Shown: positions 23,588 through 32,000, counted from the stretch's first letter. The stretch is 32,000 nucleotides of DNA from Xylanibacter ruminicola 23 (GCF_000025925.1 NC_014033.1:1860001-1892000); one strand, 5' to 3'. The notes: generated by a model not told the origin, from the letters alone. A program made the numbers and translations.

Positions 23588-23624
23588 ATTCCCCTCCTTG
23601 AACTGACCAAGGAGGGGAATTTTT
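23588..23624. terminator. Bidirectional intrinsic terminator between the convergent HTCS and amidase genes
   Basis: A perfect 13-bp stem, attcccctccttg (23588-23600) / caaggaggggaat (23608-23620), with a 7-nt loop, followed by TTTT. Confidence 0.8.
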
Positions 23625-24045
23625 AAGGCTGCAGATCAGCGTACTCTTTTGTAACACTCTCGATACACGGGCAGGCCTTCATCGGGTTCAGGTCGTGGTG
23701 ACCTACGATCACCGCCTTGGGGTAACGACTGTGCAACTCGGTTAACAGCTGTCGCAAGGCTGCTTTCTGTTCCGGTGTGCGGGTGTCGGCTGGCAGATCC
23801 AGACAGTTCAAACCGCCCTCGTAGCACACCCCGATAGAGTACTTATTGTGGTTCTTGCAGTGTGCCCCAACCATCCATTCCGGCCTACCCTGCTCTATCT
23901 GTCCGTTACGACGCACCACGTAATGGTAGCCAATGCCGAGCTTAAAGCCTCGCTGGCGATGCCAGGTATCTATCTGGGCAACCGAGGATGTCTGGTTGGT
24001 TCGCACTGCCGAACAATGAATCACGATGAGGGTTATCGTCCGCAT
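23623..24045 (-). CDS. N-acetylmuramoyl-L-alanine amidase (Amidase_2 / AmpD-PGRP fold)
   Basis: 140 aa. LIVIHCSA..., GIGYHYVVRRNG, VGAHCKNHN.SIGVCYEGG and GHHDL..KACPC fit the zinc amidase_2 motif pattern. Confidence 0.8.
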   Translation of the reverse strand: MRTITLIVIHCSAVRTNQTSSVAQIDTWHRQRGFKLGIGYHYVVRRNGQIEQGRPEWMVGAHCKNHNKYSIGVCYEGGLNCLDLPADTRTPEQKAALRQLLTELHSRYPKAVIVGHHDLNPMKACPCIESVTKEYADLQP

Positions 24046-24179
24046 GACTGCACAGCAATAGTTCCCAGAACTGTTGTAATCACTGTTGCCACAAATCGCA
24101 ACACCTTAGCTACTCTATTCCAATTTACTTTTACCATAAAATCTACTTTTTAATACGTTAATAATCTTTTTCACAACCA

Positions 24180-24736
24180 CCCAACCCTCCTTCATCCTAA
24201 GGAGTTTTTCCATCACCCCCTAGCCCCCTCTTCATAAGATGGAGTCTCGACTCTTTTCCCCACCCCTTTCCCTATCCCAGGAAAAGGGGCTTAACCGCTC
24301 CTCCTGTCGCTCTTTCATTAAGGTACGCTCAGGGCATCAAAGCCCTGGCGTGTTTTTCCTTAATGGGGGCCAGCCCCCAAACCCCTGTTCGAAAACATTC
24401 TTGCGTCCCTTCGGTAGCAAGCGAGCAGAGCTCGTAACCGCACTTCGTGCTTCATGTTTACTCACTACGTTCGAAAACATTCCGCACGAGGAGGTCTTTA
24501 GAGGAATGCAAATTCTTTGAATCGATATTGAGTCTCAGATTGCCCTCTGGCAATCTGAGCAACGAAATACGAGAAGCTGTTTGAGCGGAGCGAGTTCTTC
24601 GAGTGATTTGAAGAATTTGTGTTCCGGCCTCCGAGCTCAGGACGTTTTCGCACTCTTTCTTTTGCTTCGGTTTTCTTTCTGGTGACAGAAAGAAAATGAA
24701 GGAAGGGGGTTGCAGGGGGCTTCCCCCTGCTATGGC
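24180..24736. other. Long structured non-coding region (candidate ncRNA or decayed repeat cluster)
   Basis: There is no credible ORF. Hairpins lie at 24316-24365 (8+4+6 bp), 24534-24559 (11 bp), 24671-24696 (10 bp) and 24712-24730 (8 bp). A 14-nt direct repeat, gttcgaaaacattc, occurs at 24387 and 24469. Confidence 0.3.
24671..24730 (-). terminator. Tandem hairpins downstream of the HU-like gene
   Basis: gcaggggg-ctt-ccccctgc (24712-24730) starts 7 nt after the stop, followed by ttttctttct-ggtgac-agaaagaaaa (24671-24696). Confidence 0.5.
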
Positions 24737-25309
24737 TTAGTCACCAATTGGTTCAGTACCGCCACCTGAGGTATTACCGCCACCACCTGTGTTACCACCA
24801 TTGCTTGGTGTGCTACCACCACCGGTAGAAGGTGAGTCATTCTCCGGCTCTGGGCGCAGCGAGGTGTCGTGAGTCTCCTCAAACACCACATCCTTCAACA
24901 AGGTCTTGGCATTCACATACTTCTGAACCACCTTACCGTTCTTCTCTGCAGAACCGGTTACGATACGCTCCACCTCGGGCTGGAACAGCACACGACGAGA
25001 GGTGATGGTGCTCGCAGTACAATTGTTGGCGTCGGACACACCGATACTCGAGAATCCTACCTTGAAGATGCCGATACCTGACAGACGAATCTTCTGTCCC
25101 ATCTCCAGGAAGTGCTTCATAGCAGCTCCCAGCTCGTCGAGAGCCGCCTTGATGTCGCTACGCTTCAGCGTGGCCTGTGTCTGGATAAAGTCGGCAATCT
25201 CGTCGGTCTCGATAAACTTCTGGTCGTACACTGGCTGTGCGTAGTACTTCAGATAACTCTTCGCATTGTGAGAGTTCATGTTCTGTGTCTTGATAAATTT
25301 CTGTGACAT
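24737..25309 (-). CDS. HU-like DNA-binding protein (Bacteroidales HU_HIG type) with Gly-rich tail
   Basis: 190 aa. The core LDELGAAMKHFLEMGQKIRLSGIGIFKVGFSS resembles the HU/IHF fold. The C-terminal tail is low-complexity: GGGSTPSNGGNTGGGGNTSGGG. Confidence 0.7.
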   Translation of the reverse strand: MSQKFIKTQNMNSHNAKSYLKYYAQPVYDQKFIETDEIADFIQTQATLKRSDIKAALDELGAAMKHFLEMGQKIRLSGIGIFKVGFSSIGVSDANNCTASTITSRRVLFQPEVERIVTGSAEKNGKVVQKYVNAKTLLKDVVFEETHDTSLRPEPENDSPSTGGGSTPSNGGNTGGGGNTSGGGTEPIGD

Positions 25310-25368
25310 AATGATTAATGTTTAATGTTTAATGTTTAATGTAAAATGGTTATGGTTTATGGTTCGTG
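25310..25368. repeat. Heptamer micro-array (about 8 units: aatg attaatg tttaatg x3 taaaatg gttatg gtttatg gttcgtg) abutting the HU-like start codon
   Basis: Read directly. It begins at the base after the CAT (ATG) at 25307-25309. Confidence 0.85.
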
Positions 25369-25608
25369 AGCGGGGGTGATGTTGGGGTGGATGCTGACGT
25401 TTCTACAGCTCGAAGCTCAGTCACTTTGCGGTCGAAGATGAGTTACTTTCCCCTCCTAAACTATCGTCGGAACAACGCGTAGTTGACTTCGGAACGGGCA
25501 GAAGATAACGTTCGGACCACCCAAAACTATCATGGATCACTTGCCTTACCGAGTACAAAGATACAACATTCTGAAATACTACTGGCGCACTATGGCGCAC
25601 TCGGGCGC

Positions 25609-25833
25609 TCACGGCTTAACTTTTATGATTTTTCTCTTAGGTAGGTCGATATCAAGCTCTTTGCTCAGATATTTTACGGCCCATGGCGGTAACAGTCGCG
25701 CTTTAGGACCAACGCCCATGGCAGTGAGCGCAGGCTGATGCAAACTAATCCAACGAGTAAAAGTACGTCGTGGAGCACCCACCATAGCTCGTAGCTCCTT
25801 CTTATAGTACGATCTTACTTCTAATTCTTCCAT
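25609..25833 (-). CDS. Small DUF4248-like HTH protein
   Basis: 74 aa. YYKKELRAMVGAPRRTFTRWI...LLPPWAVKYL resembles the small proteins that sit between HU-like and VirE-type genes in Bacteroidales. Confidence 0.55.
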   Translation of the reverse strand: MEELEVRSYYKKELRAMVGAPRRTFTRWISLHQPALTAMGVGPKARLLPPWAVKYLSKELDIDLPKRKIIKVKP

Positions 25834-25858
25834 AATGTTTAATATTTAATTTTTAATG
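25834..25858. repeat. Heptamer micro-array (aatg tttaata tttaatt tttaatg) abutting the DUF4248-like start codon
   Basis: Read directly. It begins at the base after the CAT at 25831-25833. Confidence 0.8.
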
Positions 25859-25937
25859 TATGACACATTTGACAGATTAATTTATAAAAGTTACGTGCGT
25901 ACCGTGTAGGTGCGTGCGCGGTACGCGCGAGGCATTC

Positions 25938-27332
25938 CTAAAACAATGCGTCAAATGTGTCAAAAATGGTTTCGCCGCTTATCACCGATACCTCGTCCTC
26001 TGGCTTGGCTTCCTGGGCCATCAGGGTTCTGTTCAGGTCGATATCGGCACCACTATACGCCACCACGTTATAGCCACGCTCACCACGTGAGCGCACACTT
26101 ACAAAGCCCATGGCCTTCATGGCACGCCCCAGCTTGTTGGGTGTCAATCGGTGTATCAGCAAGCCGCCAATGGTTTGCATAATCTCCGAGGCACTCACAA
26201 ACACGCACGGTTCGTTCTTAGCAGGCACACGATAGAACTTGCTTACCAGTTCGCGCTCGGGTTTCGACACCTCGAACCGTTTGTTATGCAGCTGCACAAC
26301 ATCCATTTCCTTTTTCTCAAACCAGTAGTGGAACCCCTGCAGATACAGAGCATAGGCCTGGGCAAAGATCTCTTCGTGATGGATAGGATACTCGTAGGGC
26401 GAACGGATACTCTCCACCTCGAACGGTAACCAGCGGCGTGTACCCGTGTCGTCGTCGATAAACTGCAGGTTGTTACTGGTACCACAGTAGCTGGCTATGT
26501 GTACACGCCGTTCCGAATTGTGCGCATACGGTTTGCGGGCATCGGTAGCTTTTGTGGTCACAGCCCATTTCAGCCTACTCATTGCCTCTGTCTTCAGCGC
26601 ATCTATCTCATCCAGACAAATCAGTCCGAACGATGATAGTTTCAGCACCTCGTCCTTATCCATCTTACCGAAAGTAGAAGTAGAGTGGAAATAGGCCGAC
26701 AGTTCGGGAGGTATCAGACTCTCAAGCCAACGGGTTTTGTAGATACCCTGTTCGCCTACCAGCACCAGCACCTCCTCGTTCACCACTTTCTCCTCCAGCC
26801 ACCCTGCCACCACACCCACCAACCATTTGCGCAAACAGGCGTAAAACAGCAGTTGCTCGTCAGTACCGCCCTTTACTTGTACATCCATCGCCAGCGAGAA
26901 TATGGGGTTAGTCGTCTCGTCCCACGGCGGCAGTCGGGCCAGATAGGCTTTCAGCGGATTATACAACGGCACAAAATCAGAGTCGATAACCTGCCAGATT
27001 TTCTTGGGATTCACATCCTTTTGTTTCGACAGCATACTGCACAGCGAGTTCACCACCCTGTCGCTAATCTCGAACCATTGGCCAGGCAATCGCCATTCTT
27101 CCAATGGCGTTTTGCCCGTGGGATATTTAATCCCCATGGCCGCATACTCGCTGATTTCGGGCACTCGGAATTCGTCCTTACCCGTTATCACATTGTGACG
27201 CAGGTAGAGCGTGCTCATCAGGAAGTTTTGTATATCCTCCTCGGTGGCACGCACCTCGCGCCAGTTCTTTTTGTGAAAAGCGTCCCCTTGGGCCGAGCGT
27301 TGCTTATGCTCCTTTTGTTCGTTCTTAGTCAT
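25938..27332 (-). CDS. VirE/VapE-type primase-helicase-like P-loop NTPase of mobile-element origin
   Basis: 464 aa. Walker A-like LVGEQGIYKTRWLESL and Walker B LICLDEID, with an N-terminal region typical of Bacteroidales VirE_N/DUF3987-type proteins. Confidence 0.65.
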   Translation of the reverse strand: MTKNEQKEHKQRSAQGDAFHKKNWREVRATEEDIQNFLMSTLYLRHNVITGKDEFRVPEISEYAAMGIKYPTGKTPLEEWRLPGQWFEISDRVVNSLCSMLSKQKDVNPKKIWQVIDSDFVPLYNPLKAYLARLPPWDETTNPIFSLAMDVQVKGGTDEQLLFYACLRKWLVGVVAGWLEEKVVNEEVLVLVGEQGIYKTRWLESLIPPELSAYFHSTSTFGKMDKDEVLKLSSFGLICLDEIDALKTEAMSRLKWAVTTKATDARKPYAHNSERRVHIASYCGTSNNLQFIDDDTGTRRWLPFEVESIRSPYEYPIHHEEIFAQAYALYLQGFHYWFEKKEMDVVQLHNKRFEVSKPERELVSKFYRVPAKNEPCVFVSASEIMQTIGGLLIHRLTPNKLGRAMKAMGFVSVRSRGERGYNVVAYSGADIDLNRTLMAQEAKPEDEVSVISGETIFDTFDALF

Positions 27333-27362
27333 CTTTTTTCTGTTTATGATTGAAACACGTCA

Positions 27363-27370
27363 CAAAGTTA
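27363..27370 (-). promoter_or_regulatory. -7 promoter box TAACTTTG for the VirE-type gene
   Basis: The reverse complement of caaagtta matches TAnnTTTG, 31 nt upstream of the ATG at 27332. Confidence 0.35.
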
Positions 27371-27451
27371 CTGATAATTTCAGCAACCATCACAAAATTA
27401 ACAAACAGAAACGTTACTTAAAATGATGTTAAAAGGGGCGGTATCCAACCA

Positions 27452-27748
27452 TCAGAACTCGGCATGTATCTCCACATCCTCAAAGCCGGGCACCGTAATG
27501 CTGATGCTGGCTGTGCGGATATTCTGCATGATATCGGGGTACAACGGATCGGAAACAGCCGATGGAGTGGCCGTAACATAGCCATCCACCTTGGTTGCAA
27601 AACGCTGTACACTATCGGCCGCTACTGTTCCGAGGGCCAACGACTCCTGATAAAACTTCACCATCTGTGGTGTTGAAACCTGATCTTCTGTTACCTGTTC
27701 GCAACTTATCACCAAACAGGCCGAGATGATTAAAAATAGTTTGCGCAT
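27452..27748 (-). CDS. Small lipoprotein, unknown function
   Basis: 98 aa with a lipobox (MRKLFLIISACLVISC). It has its own TATCTTTG box at 27784-27791 on the minus strand. Confidence 0.55.
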   Translation of the reverse strand: MRKLFLIISACLVISCEQVTEDQVSTPQMVKFYQESLALGTVAADSVQRFATKVDGYVTATPSAVSDPLYPDIMQNIRTASISITVPGFEDVEIHAEF

Positions 27749-28269: not shown

Positions 28270-29055
28270 TCAGATGGCTATACTGAATTTCACGCTGGTG
28301 CCCTTGGTGTAATGCGGGTCGATATACAGACTGCCGCCAAGCCGCTCTACCAGTGTGCGACTGATGTTGAGCCCGGTGCTGATGCGCCGCTTCATGTGGC
28401 GCACAGGGTTGAGCAGCGAGAAGATGGCTTTGCGACGCTCCTGACTGATACCACATCCCGTGTCGGATACCGACACCTCCAGGCAGTCGACCTGGTCGTT
28501 GGCCTCCACGCGTATCAACCCTTTGACTGTATATTTAACAGCATTCTCAAGCAGGTTACGCACCACCTTCTCCAGACATTCACGGTTGGTATGCACCGCA
28601 TAGAAATCAGGCATGCTCGACTTGTAGTCGACAAGCACACTCTCAGGCGCCCGTTTCTGGTATTCATCCACCAGTTCGCGACACAGCTGATTGACATACA
28701 CAAAGCCCAGCGGCAACTCCTCAGCCAGGTTCTCGTAATAGGTCAGCTCCACCATCTTATCGATGATGGCATCACGGCTCTGCGCATCGGTATGCTCGTT
28801 GAGTTCGCGGGCAGCCCAGTACATAAAGTGACGGCGTTCGCGCACATCGTCGACCAGCCGTTCGTTCTGACAGCGCAGTTTCTTCAGCTCGCGCCCGTCG
28901 TCGGCGCGCTGGCGTACCAGTTCATCGTTTCGCAGCTGCAGCTCGTCAATCTGCTTATGCCAGTGGTGATACATCACCAGCAGCGCCAAAGCCATGGCCA
29001 TCACCAGCACGACTGCTATCACACAATAACCACTCATCATCATAGGCCCAACCAT
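28270..29055 (-). CDS. Membrane-anchored histidine-kinase-like ATPase lacking the phospho-acceptor His (HK-like B)
   Basis: N-terminal TM segment (YCVIAVVLVMAMALALLVMY) followed by a coiled coil. The H-box position reads AARELNEH, with Arg where His is expected. The N-box (RNLLENAVKYT) and G1 box (SDTGCGI) are intact. Confidence 0.7.
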   Translation of the reverse strand: MVGPMMMSGYCVIAVVLVMAMALALLVMYHHWHKQIDELQLRNDELVRQRADDGRELKKLRCQNERLVDDVRERRHFMYWAARELNEHTDAQSRDAIIDKMVELTYYENLAEELPLGFVYVNQLCRELVDEYQKRAPESVLVDYKSSMPDFYAVHTNRECLEKVVRNLLENAVKYTVKGLIRVEANDQVDCLEVSVSDTGCGISQERRKAIFSLLNPVRHMKRRISTGLNISRTLVERLGGSLYIDPHYTKGTSVKFSIAI

Positions 29056-29838
29056 TTATATCTTAATACTGAATACAATCGAGGTGCAATCCTTGCGCTG
29101 CTGGTCGAGAAACATAGTGCCCCCAATCTTCTGGGTGAGCGCGTAACTGATACGCAGGCGCACACCAACAATCGTGTTGCACAGGTTACCGTCGTTGGGC
29201 AGCCGCTCAAACAGCACGTCTTTCATGTTCTCGGGTATCCCCACCCCGGTATTGCTTAACCGAAACACCAGATACTTGCCACTATCATCGGGCATCACCG
29301 ACAATTTAATATACCCTTCGTGGGTGAACTGCATCGCACTGACAATCAGATTCTTGAACAGCTTGCGCAGATAGCCCAGATGGGTGCGGATGACGAAGTC
29401 GTCGGCCAGCGAAGTCTCTACACACATCTGGACATTAGGATTATTCAGATAGCGTTCGCAGGTGTAGAACATATCCTGACAGAACATGTTAACCAGCACT
29501 TCGTCGTGACGAGGCACCTGCCCCAGATCGCCATACTGGGCCAGTTCGATGGCACAGTCCACCATCTCACCTACCAACGAGGACTTACTACGCACCTCAT
29601 GGCACATCATGTCCCAATCGCACTGATCCAACTTCAGTTCGCTGTTCATCAATATCTCCAAGTAACTGTCCACCCCCTGGTAAACAGCCTGCACGTCGTG
29701 GAGCACCTGATACAGCATCTTGGCCTTGGAATGCTCGCGACGAGCTTTCTTCATGGTGCTCACCAGCTTCTTCTGGTACTCCAGACTGTCAGGTCTGGGC
29801 ACCACCTTTTCATTATAGTTATATATCGTCGTTCCCAT
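29056..29838 (-). CDS. Soluble histidine-kinase-like protein with an H-box but degenerate ATP-binding motifs (HK-like C)
   Basis: H-box-like MMCHEVRSKSS. The N-box reads KNLIVSAMQFT, with Ser where Asn is expected. G1 reads SNTGVGI, with Asn where Asp is expected. It is a paralog of the downstream gene, and its stop codon abuts that gene's ATG. Confidence 0.7.
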   Translation of the reverse strand: MGTTIYNYNEKVVPRPDSLEYQKKLVSTMKKARREHSKAKMLYQVLHDVQAVYQGVDSYLEILMNSELKLDQCDWDMMCHEVRSKSSLVGEMVDCAIELAQYGDLGQVPRHDEVLVNMFCQDMFYTCERYLNNPNVQMCVETSLADDFVIRTHLGYLRKLFKNLIVSAMQFTHEGYIKLSVMPDDSGKYLVFRLSNTGVGIPENMKDVLFERLPNDGNLCNTIVGVRLRISYALTQKIGGTMFLDQQRKDCTSIVFSIKI

Positions 29839-29931: not shown

Positions 29932-30420
29932 TCATTTTATCAACACATTCTGCAGTTCGGCCAGCAGCACCATGCACTGCATGGGCGTCATCGAGGCCAT
30001 GTTCAACTGGCGGATACGCTCGGCCACATCGTGCTCAACAGGACCTTTGGCTACTGGTGGCTGCAACTCAGGATACACTGGCACCGTCGGCTGCCGCACG
30101 ACACCCTGAGGCACACTGCTACGCCAGATCTGAAACGACTGCTCGTCGATTGAGCTGTCTATTTTTATCGTTTTACAACCATCCCTGCAGTCCTCTATCT
30201 CGTGCCCCAAGCGGTGTAGCACCAACTTCGGGAAGCCTATATCCACTACATCCGAACCTACCACTTTTACAAATTTCCGTCTGACCTCATACTGTCGCAC
30301 ATGGTTCACAAACAGGTAGGCACTACGTTCGAAAGCGCGGTAGAATCCGCCCTCAGGCCATAGCCGGATTGTATTCTCGTTTTGCTGCTCGAAGGCAAGC
30401 TTTTCTTTCATTGTCGGCAT
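29932..30420 (-). CDS. MutS-domain-I-like mini protein (162 aa), candidate retroelement accessory factor
   Basis: TIRLWPEGGFYRAFERSAYLF...DIGFPKLVL parallels E. coli MutS ILLFYRMGDFYELFYDDA...PMAGIPYHAV. The C-terminal LNMASMTPMQCMVLLAELQ parallels the MutS C-terminal LTPxxAL..L motif. There is no ATPase domain. The start is taken at the ATG at 30418-30420, 25 nt after the RT stop. Confidence 0.6.
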   Translation of the reverse strand: MPTMKEKLAFEQQNENTIRLWPEGGFYRAFERSAYLFVNHVRQYEVRRKFVKVVGSDVVDIGFPKLVLHRLGHEIEDCRDGCKTIKIDSSIDEQSFQIWRSSVPQGVVRQPTVPVYPELQPPVAKGPVEHDVAERIRQLNMASMTPMQCMVLLAELQNVLIK

Positions 30421-30445: not shown

Positions 30446-31687
30446 CTACTTCTCGAATAATATCTCCAATTCCACTTCCAGGCGCGCCAGCTGTCGCATC
30501 TTCTCACGATACACTCGGCGCACACACACCTTGTATCTCTTACGGTTCATGCTCACATACATCACCTGATACCACTCAGGACTGATCCTGTCGAGCAGTT
30601 TCCTAACCTGGTTGTAAGCAGCAAAGTGGCGCATCATGCCAAGATAGGAGTTCATCGTAGAAGCAAACTCGTTCACATGCTCGCGTGCATAGTGCTCATC
30701 CGACTGAGCCAGACGATTGTAGCGCTCAATCTTGTCGATACAGGTGGCTATCGTGCGCCGGCTGATATAGGTGCGCCCTGGCATCACCATACCGCCAGTG
30801 AACAGTACGCCCTTGGAGTAGTGCTGCAGATACATCTTCTTGGGATGACGCCGCACACCGTTCCGGGCTGCCCATTTGTCGACAATCTCATCACGCATCC
30901 ATAGTAGCAGTTCCTTGTCGCGACTCACGAATATCATGTCGTCCATATAGTGGCCATAGCTCACCGACATACTCCAGAGACTGTCGGTTATCTCGTGGTC
31001 GAGATCGTCCATGAATACCAAGGCTGTCATCTGACTGATTACCTTGCCTATCGGCATACCATGCAGGCCGTCGCTGTGAAACAAACTCTTGTTGGGCGGC
31101 AAACCGTTCCAAGCTTTCAGCGGACTGTTACGCACACAATTCAGCTCAGGCCGGTCCATAATCACCACGCGCAGCAGCCATATCATCCACTCCAGGTCGG
31201 GACCACGGTATATCTGCCGTAGCAGACTGGCGAACTTGCGCCATGCAAGCTCCTTGGGCAGCGACATGAAGTACGACTGCATATCGAGCTTCATCACCCA
31301 GCAGTCGACCGTATAATTAGCTGACTGCTCTCTCACCATCTGCTCTACGCGCTGTATGCCATAGAGCGTGCCCTTGCCCACTCGGGTTGAGTAGTTGTCG
31401 TCGATGAACCGCTGCTCAAGAAAGGGCGTTACCCTCTGGGCGAAAACCGTGTCGACCACGCGGTCGCGAAAAGCTGCGCCGAAGATTTCCCGTTTCACGG
31501 GCTTATCGCTGACAAACACGATAGAGCGCGAAGGCTTGTAGGTACAGTTTTGCAACTCTTGCCACAGCTTCAGGCACTCCTCTTCGGCATTAATCTCAAA
31601 ACGAATAGCGTCTATCGTATTACCCTTGTGCCGCAAGCACAGCCAATAGGCTTCGTAGACCTCTTCGTAACTGACACCACATTTCAT
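30446..31687 (-). CDS. Reverse transcriptase, DGR-type
   Basis: 413 aa. AAFRDRVVDTVF (RT motif 1/2), KLDMQSYFMS (motif 3), GMPIGKVISQ (the (I/L)GxxxSQ signature of DGR RTs), YGHYMDDMIFV (catalytic YxDD), then RRHPKKMYLQHYSKGVLFTGG (thumb entry). Confidence 0.85.
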   Translation of the reverse strand: MKCGVSYEEVYEAYWLCLRHKGNTIDAIRFEINAEEECLKLWQELQNCTYKPSRSIVFVSDKPVKREIFGAAFRDRVVDTVFAQRVTPFLEQRFIDDNYSTRVGKGTLYGIQRVEQMVREQSANYTVDCWVMKLDMQSYFMSLPKELAWRKFASLLRQIYRGPDLEWMIWLLRVVIMDRPELNCVRNSPLKAWNGLPPNKSLFHSDGLHGMPIGKVISQMTALVFMDDLDHEITDSLWSMSVSYGHYMDDMIFVSRDKELLLWMRDEIVDKWAARNGVRRHPKKMYLQHYSKGVLFTGGMVMPGRTYISRRTIATCIDKIERYNRLAQSDEHYAREHVNEFASTMNSYLGMMRHFAAYNQVRKLLDRISPEWYQVMYVSMNRKRYKVCVRRVYREKMRQLARLEVELEILFEK

Positions 31688-31710
31688 TTACAAATAGTCA
31701 ATATTCCATA

Positions 31711-31830
31711 GGCGAGGACGGGGCGAACGCGTCGGTCCGTATTGGACTTAGTGTTGTTGCCGTTCAGATAGAGTTTACCATCGGTGTTGAAGTTCAGATT
31801 GAACGCATAGCCAGCACCCTTTCCACTCGA
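31711..31830 (-). repeat. Candidate DGR template repeat (TR)
   Basis: The minus strand reads SSGKGAGYAFNLNFNTDGKLYLNGNNTKSNTDRRVRPVLA. It has seven AAC/AAT Asn codons and a ..VRPV end, like the variable C-terminus of C-type-lectin/DUF1566-type DGR targets. It ends 24 nt upstream of the RT ATG, and no start codon or long ORF is attached. Confidence 0.6.
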
Positions 31831-32000
31831 ACAAATGTTATCAGTTGTCTTCTGTCTTTACTAACTGCACCGTTTACGCGACGGTCGTGTCAGTCGATAA
31901 CCCCTATAGATAATAGTTGACAGCTCTCTCCGCCAAGCCTTGACCGGGCGGACGCTCGCCATTTGGTGTTTGTTATTACTTTATTTAATGATCACTTATC

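Follow-up and report, generated by a model that had tools for sequence, protein, structure and literature searches.

Layout of the retroelement and its accessory gene

The stretch of DNA analysed here, 32,000 nucleotides (nt) of Xylanibacter ruminicola 23 (NC_014033.1:1860001-1892000; at its full length, the window), carries near its end part of a diversity-generating retroelement (DGR). Directly behind the reverse transcriptase (RT) gene of this element lies a small open reading frame (ORF), here called msl, at 29932..30420 on the minus strand (stop codon 29932-29934 included), which starts with ATG, encodes 162 amino acids (aa) and belongs to a conserved family. A preliminary description of the window had placed an ORF of 162 aa at 29932-30420, directly after the RT gene, and had quoted the peptides GGFYRAFERSA, DIGFPKLVL and SMTPMQCMVLLAELQ from its product. 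All of this was reproduced: the three peptides are present in the msl translation, and msl starts 25 nt past the RT stop codon on the same strand. A longer, GTG-started reading of 197 aa is not supported, since all homologues begin at MPT(I/M)KEK. The database record of the exact 162-aa protein reads "hypothetical protein" of Xylanibacter (Prevotella) ruminicola.

The RT gene (30446..31687, minus strand) encodes 413 aa. Its product matches RVT_1 at 4.5e-14 and carries the DGR-type motif PIGKVISQ (IGxxxSQ) together with YMDD. No pair of template repeat (TR) and variable repeat (VR) was found inside the window alone, because the window stops 313 nt upstream of the RT gene and the VR lies beyond its end. 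The source contig with its flanks (locus L001; window coordinate = 40421 - L001 coordinate) contains the repeat pair. The TR, 113 nt long, maps to 31710..31822 on the minus strand and ends 22 nt before the RT ATG; it has 30 adenines, largely in AAY codons, and all 11 of the 11 differences between TR and VR fall at TR adenines. The VR forms the 3' end of a 683-aa target gene and ends 5 nt before the target stop codon. The N terminus of the target matches the Mfa1 fimbrial subunit family.

A bAvd gene of 150 codons (L001 7977-8429), whose product matches PF22296 and, at 7e-11, NF033474 (DivGenRetAVD), lies between target and TR. Only its final 9 nt (31992..32000, minus strand) fall within the window; the rest of bAvd lies outside it, as do the VR and the pilin-like target gene. 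The cassette order in L001 is thus pilin-like target with VR, bAvd, TR, RT and Msl. Upstream of it are an integrase gene, DUF3575, DUF3868 and FimA-like genes, followed by the 683-aa target, and after the RT come the 162-aa ORF and genes for two HATPase_c proteins. With its RT signature, its adenine-only TR/VR differences and its VR at the 3' end of the target, the element is a complete, chromosomally integrated and typical pilus-diversifying DGR of X. ruminicola. In one respect the preliminary description was wrong. It had msl occupying the position where Avd is normally found, yet Avd has a gene of its own upstream of TR-RT, just outside the window. The idea of msl as an Avd replacement fails with it, since bAvd is present and most relatives have Msl upstream of Avd-TR-RT. 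We also rejected an Avd identity for the msl product itself: it has no bAvd match, its predicted fold is mixed alpha/beta and the cassette has its separate bAvd gene.

The Msl family and its association with DGRs

An exhaustive profile search (E<=1e-3) returned a widespread Msl family of 1446 cluster representatives, of which nearly all come from chromosomal elements of the Bacteroidales type, and 16 close homologues of the msl product were found. On these sequence comparisons, msl is judged to be far more than a chance ORF. Among the 150 matches listed, nearly all are 150-200 aa long and align end to end. The near-invariant residues are E23, G24, F26, Y30, S33, A34, G62-F63-P64 and W99 in the N-terminal module and T145, P146 and C149 at the C terminus. 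The isoelectric point (pI) of the whole protein is 7.74 for the window Msl, with a mean of 6.7 +/- 1.3 over the family. Among the NCBIfam models, none matched Msl. One metagenomic member (P0016, 204 aa, ENA) joins an N-terminal PF13408 recombinase zinc-beta-ribbon to Msl sequence from about residue 50; this could be a genuine fusion or rearrangement, or else the product of a chimeric assembly.

When one genome was scanned for each GTDB species, 128 relatives came up, almost all in Bacteroidales (Prevotella, Bacteroides, Parabacteroides, Alistipes, Rikenellaceae and Muribaculaceae), and 80 loci were kept. A homologue of the window RT lies within 5 kb on the same strand in 59 of the 80 loci, and so the co-occurrence with a DGR RT that had been put forward as a check on the initial idea was observed. 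Msl is upstream of the RT in 54 of these 59 linked loci, typically by ~800 nt, and the usual order is target-Msl-Avd-TR-RT; a minority (5/59) have the RT followed by Msl, as in the window. The longest ORF in the gap between Msl and RT is bAvd in 32 of 43 cases (window locus counted), and lectin-type target domains appear in the longer gaps. No RT was found nearby in the other 21 loci, only 3 of which have full 6-kb flanks on both sides. These three (L025, L034 and L081), where no DGR RT was detectable, may be orphan or trans-acting msl copies. In a Bacteroidaceae metagenome-assembled genome (L076, 6001-6856), an Msl ORF without the C-terminal module overlaps an ORF for the C-terminal half of an RT. 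We rejected a fusion of Msl and RT here; the arrangement is a decayed cassette, consistent with an internal deletion of Avd and TR.

Viral contigs yielded 2 Msl relatives in 2.9 million IMG/VR contigs. A separate observation concerns the 80 IMG/VR contigs that were kept (L088-L167): most of them end exactly at a full-length mutS gene whose product is ~60% identical to Escherichia coli MutS, which suggests a recurrent prophage or pyocin-type insertion site beside mutS in gammaproteobacteria.

The preliminary description had referred to a MutS-like class of accessory proteins in DGR surveys and had treated the window ORF as a candidate member. The class exists. The MSL proteins of Wu et al. (2018, PMC5758913) are 112-283 aa long, have a pI of 7.2 +/- 1.7, and resemble MutS according to annotation or Phyre2; every DGR with one of them has avd as well. 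The pilus DGRs of Bacteroides fragilis 638R, Bacteroides thetaiotaomicron VPI-5482 and Bacteroides uniformis carry both Avd and Msl (Macadangdang 2024, bioRxiv 10.1101/2024.11.15.621889). Membership of the window protein was likewise borne out. It has the size (162 aa) and location expected of the class, 25 nt after the RT stop codon on the same strand of a confirmed DGR cassette; avd is present in that cassette; its pI of 7.7 is near neutral; and its similarity to MutS is of the MutS_I type, being found at the family level, with the window protein alone sub-threshold. Moreover, at a locus of Bacteroides hominis (L078), a 160-aa Msl homologue is encoded between an 891-aa target and bAvd; the locus also has genes for a fimbrillin and an RT. 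In sequence this homologue is identical to AAO77422.1 (Q8A5C4) of B. thetaiotaomicron VPI-5482, and the same sequence occurs in B. fragilis. BLASTP aligned the window Msl with AAO77422.1 over the full length at 30% identity (E 3e-18). From its place between the target and Avd-RT in the identical L078 cassette, we infer that AAO77422.1 is the published B. thetaiotaomicron Msl, for which the paper gives no accession.

Taken together, these observations make it very probable that the window ORF encodes an Msl-family DGR accessory protein. Like the Bacteroides Msl DGRs, the element has a type V pilus-like target in a fimbrial operon beside an integrase gene, and its layout is that of the B. fragilis, B. 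thetaiotaomicron and B. uniformis elements (bioRxiv 10.1101/2024.11.15.621889). Unlike the published Msl DGRs, it has the order Avd-TR-RT-Msl instead of target-Msl-Avd-TR-RT, and its host is a rumen species of the Prevotella group, outside the searchable Msl papers. The window Msl is an added member of an already described class, in the less common gene order and alongside Avd. In itself this is an ordinary finding: the DGR is a typical one for pilus diversification, and its accessory class was known.

Relationship of Msl to MutS

The msl product had been likened beforehand to domain I of MutS, with the mismatch-sensing Phe kept and the Glu lost, and to the extreme C-terminal helix of MutS, with no clamp, lever or ATPase domains in between. 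Each of these points held on analysis. Residues 1-105 (30106..30420, minus strand) are predicted to form a MutS-domain-I-like module (pLDDT, the predicted local distance difference test score, >90) with secondary structure elements in the order alpha-beta-beta-alpha-beta-beta-alpha-beta. On its own, the window Msl aligns with Pfam MutS_I at 13.4 bits (E 0.092), residues 2-49 falling on profile positions 2-49. The Pfam search, which had been suggested as a check, thus failed for the window protein alone (13.4 against a cut-off of 20.6 bits) and succeeded at the level of the family. MutS_I was matched by 62 of 150 diverse members scanned individually against Pfam, with a best E of 2.7e-6, and any other Pfam family by <=2 of 150. 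The curated cut-off was passed by 3 of 10 members (P0060, 27.1 bits; P0193, 25.5 bits; P0229, 24.5 bits), and the members' MutS_I alignments are always co-linear from the N terminus.

Structure prediction pointed in the same direction. An AlphaFold (AF2) model built from 15 close homologues had a pLDDT of 54 and was unusable; one built from an 85-sequence alignment had a mean pLDDT of 85 and was used. This model retrieved MutS domain I first in two libraries. In the Foldseek search of the PDB, ranks 1 and 2 were Taq MutS on heteroduplex DNA (1EWQ chains B and A; probability 0.94, 73-82 columns), and human MutSbeta chain A (MSH2; 3thw, 3thz) and MSH6 (2o8e_B) were also listed. In the viral library BFVD, rank 1 was a giant-virus MutS (probability 0.98), and rank 7 was a stand-alone "MutS-like N-terminal domain" protein of Klosneuvirus (probability 0.92, root mean square deviation 3.5 over 82 columns). 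Like Msl, this Klosneuvirus protein (A0A1V0SJ64, 135 aa) is small and has essentially one MutS domain I fold; unlike Msl, it has no DGR context, and the identity between the two is ~16%. We accept a relationship of the Msl N terminus to MutS, predicted from profiles and modelled fold, that is remote yet consistent over a curated profile and two structure libraries.

The similarity extends to the mismatch-contacting motif. Phe26 (codon 30343..30345, minus strand) aligns with the mismatch-stacking Phe36 of E. coli MutS by hhalign and by the co-linearity of the Pfam matches, and R28 aligns with E38, so that the window Msl reads F-Y-R. Retention of the Phe and loss of the Glu is a family-wide property: position 26 is Phe in 148 of 150 members, whereas position 28 is Lys in 96, Arg in 12, Val in 15, Ile in 15 and Glu in 2. 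In MutS this Glu reportedly takes part in mismatch discrimination and in the authorisation of repair. Msl and MutS domain I (PF01624; Taq 1EWQ) share a co-linear secondary structure, an N-terminal position, the G-x-F wedge motif and a G-[IF]-P motif (G-I-P in MutS, G62-F63-P64 in Msl). They differ in that Lys or Arg (Val or Ile in some members) stands in Msl for Glu38 and in that the Msl core is basic, not acidic: the motif-bearing residues 17-70 have a family pI of 9.4 +/- 0.6 and a net charge of ~+4, and the E. coli MutS equivalent has a pI of 5.0.

MutS_I was the sole Pfam match, and the model comprises domain I, a linker and a helix-loop-helix. Of what characterises a bona fide MutS, the window Msl lacks the Phe-X-Glu motif and the connector, lever/clamp and ABC ATPase domains (II-V). 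A genuine MutS was rejected for the window ORF on these grounds, the protein being 162 aa in all, with Glu38 replaced and domains II-V lacking. Standing alone in this way, unlike domain I in MutS, Msl would have no ATP-driven clamp and no MutL licensing.

The linker, residues 106-127 (30040..30105, minus strand), is variable and predicted to be disordered (pLDDT <50 over 107-125); its length ranges from 14 to 63 residues in the family. The beta-clamp motif Qxx[LMI][FLWMI] was found in the Msl linkers of 3 of 150 members against 3.3 expected, which is no enrichment. Beyond the linker, residues 128-162 (29935..30039, minus strand) are predicted to form a C-terminal helix-loop-helix (helices 128-137 and 146-161, pLDDT ~90). 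For comparison, a MutS alignment of 60 distinct sequences was assembled from E. coli MutS and 59 sequences, 59-89% identical to it, from mutS genes at the termini of IMG/VR prophage contigs. In hhalign, the profile of Msl residues 126-162 matched the MutS C-terminal profile with Prob 65 and P 6.1e-5, over 30 gapless columns that run to the last residues of both proteins and include an aligned T-P helix cap. None of 200 column permutations reached the score of 21.7 (mean 8.1 +/- 1.8, maximum 14.2), and reversing the profile gave 8.3. With the E. coli MutS sequence alone, the C-terminal match was weak (P 0.011), in the correct register.

The matched segment (E. coli MutS residues ~820-853) is the C-terminal domain solved in PDB 2OK2 and 3ZLJ, and this helix-loop-helix is said to mediate the tetramerisation of MutS. 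The two have in common a helix-loop-helix of ~34 residues at the C terminus, the T-P cap and an L-K pattern. In contrast to MutS, in which alone a beta-clamp motif precedes this domain, Msl has a near-invariant C149 where MutS has Ala; this residue (codon 29974-29976), in the second C-terminal helix, is Cys in 145 of 150 members. From profiles and predicted structure, Msl therefore looks like a two-module MutS remnant in which a linker connects the two ends of MutS. The C-terminal MutS module and the change of Glu to Lys or Arg appear not to have been pointed out in the searchable literature, which mentions domain I similarity only. The retained Phe, the replacement of Glu by a basic residue, the basic core and the MutS-type C-terminal helix-loop-helix are added here as testable features of the family.

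Several results weigh against the MutS relationship. The window Msl alone lies below the MutS_I cut-off; the Foldseek E-values were 0.03-0.2, with none <=1e-3 in the PDB or BFVD; and hmmsearch with the family profile, from shallow and deep alignments, found no MutS among all PDB sequences. The N-terminal hhalign comparison with the shallow gammaproteobacterial MutS alignment (number of effective sequences, 1.5) was not significant (P 0.095), which leaves Pfam and the predicted fold as the basis for domain I. In addition, phmmer with the best Pfam-matching member found no MutS among the PDB sequences, and hmmsearch with the N- and C-terminal family profiles gave no signal for the single E. coli MutS in a background of 6127 ORFs, whereas hhalign against that sequence gave the right register at low probability. 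The weak scores of the window protein (Pfam E 0.092, the Foldseek E-values, no PDB sequence match) would suit a convergent or chance resemblance, in which msl encodes an unrelated small DGR-linked protein, for example one of the CH1 class. CH1 proteins are 160-169 aa long, acidic (pI 4.7 +/- 0.2) and found only in DGRs without avd, HRDC and MSL (PMC5758913). A length of 162 aa falls within that range. However, MutS_I is the only recurrent Pfam family among the members (62/150 versus <=2), with some above the curated cut-off, MutS ranked first in two independent structure libraries, and a second, independent MutS module is present at the C terminus. The CH1 class itself was rejected on its description, the window protein having a pI of 7.74, which is not acidic, and an avd gene in its cassette. 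We consider a chance resemblance very improbable.

Possible function and neighbouring genes

In a DGR, RT-Avd copies the TR RNA into an adenine-mutagenised complementary DNA (cDNA) that replaces the VR. Deletion of mutS raises retrohoming 5-10 fold in Bacteroides ovatus, in an all-or-nothing manner (bioRxiv 10.1101/2024.11.15.621889), and engineered DGR circuits include a dominant-negative MutL, citing the MutS-like homologues of natural DGRs. Because host MutS suppresses retrohoming and engineers add dominant-negative MutL, MutS fragments encoded by DGRs are the obvious candidates for a device by which natural DGRs counter mismatch repair. Msl can be likened to MutL E32K, which serves in oligonucleotide and retron recombineering as well as in engineered DGR circuits, but the likeness is no more than an analogy of function, in that a defective repair component is placed beside cDNA or single-stranded DNA editing. 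MutL E32K is an engineered point mutant, whereas Msl is a natural MutS fragment whose antagonism of repair is hypothetical.

In the mechanism that we propose, the adenine-mutagenised cDNA would pair with the VR and give a densely mismatched heteroduplex, a substrate for host MutS. Msl would bind the mismatched or kinked duplex via domain I, with the Phe wedge and without the Glu, and would oligomerise via its C-terminal helices, with itself or with host MutS, the active form probably being an oligomer. Alternatively, Msl could co-assemble with host MutS through the shared C-terminal module. The heteroduplex would be shielded in this way and, since Msl has no ATPase and there would be no MutL licensing, the new VR allele would escape repair. 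An anti-mismatch-repair mechanism of this kind is tentative, and we give it somewhat less than an even chance. In its most specific form, Msl would be a natural "mini-MutS", a dominant-negative decoy that occupies the cDNA:VR heteroduplex or co-assembles with MutS, so that local repair is off and alleles are fixed; this is possible but doubtful. Identity and mechanism together, judged as a single explanation by way of compromise, are on the whole somewhat likely to be right.

The mechanistic part has points to its discredit. No experiments on any Msl were found in the searchable literature, and an isolated domain I without the clamp domains may bind DNA only weakly. In the published data, the three Msl-bearing Bacteroides DGRs are low-activity ones and two highly active ones have no Msl, so that the activity pattern is no support for Msl boosting diversification; the authors attribute the low activity to transcription (bioRxiv 10.1101/2024.11.15.621889). 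A role apart from mismatch repair has to be weighed, in which Msl acts in cDNA synthesis or hand-over within the RT-Avd-TR RNA particle, for example by holding the 3' end of the cDNA or its mispaired hybrid with the RNA, or by delivering the cDNA to the VR. The translational adjacency of msl to the RT gene across 25 nt, its position directly upstream of Avd-TR-RT in most relatives and the basic core of the protein would all fit such a role, as would the C-terminal extensions of three DGR RTs, which weakly resemble MutS_I (PMC5758913) and imply action in cis. It would leave the MutS-type C-terminal oligomerisation module without an obvious role, however, and most DGRs, including the highly active B. 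ovatus and Bacteroides finegoldii elements, work without Msl, which is therefore no core requirement of cDNA synthesis. On this evidence we regard a role within the particle as rather unlikely.

The low activity of the three Msl-bearing Bacteroides DGRs, which are also tightly regulated, could instead reflect a negative or conditional regulator that restrains retrohoming and holds chromosomal pilus DGRs inactive pending a signal, for example by recruiting host repair to the heteroduplex or by sequestering the cDNA. Two histidine-kinase-like genes follow msl, and the 2 relatives in IMG/VR compare with 128 in genomes; being almost absent from viral contigs, Msl goes with chromosomal or integrative and conjugative elements. 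Such a regulator is nevertheless improbable: the sample consists of five elements, the authors tie the low activity to low avd, TR and rt transcript levels, and Msl, without ATPase and MutL-interacting domains, has no evident way to recruit repair.

The two genes that follow msl after a 93-nt gap encode tandem proteins of ~260 aa (29056-29838 and 28270-29055, minus strand). Both match HATPase_c (histidine-kinase ATPase), with no HisKA match in Pfam. The pair is kept in all 6 of the 6 contigs that carry the window msl, and a relative of the second protein follows the RT in one Prevotella locus (L010). The pair may have a part in the regulation of the pilus/DGR element. Further along the minus strand, 23623-27748 contains genes of the mobile-element type, for an Amidase_2 protein, an HU-like protein, a VapE-like primase/helicase and ORFs of 74, 98 and 104 aa. 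A tyrosine integrase gene lies outside the window (L001 1145-2122), and the mobile-type block with the DGR sits between SusC/SusD polysaccharide-utilisation loci.

Two intervals flank the TR on the minus strand. A non-coding stretch of 167 nt (31825-31991) separates it from Avd, and 22 nt (31688-31709) separate it from the RT start. In the Bordetella phage DGR, an RNA element downstream of the TR is needed for priming. With the TR ending 22 nt before the RT ATG, any downstream priming RNA element of the X. ruminicola DGR would therefore overlap the RT coding sequence.

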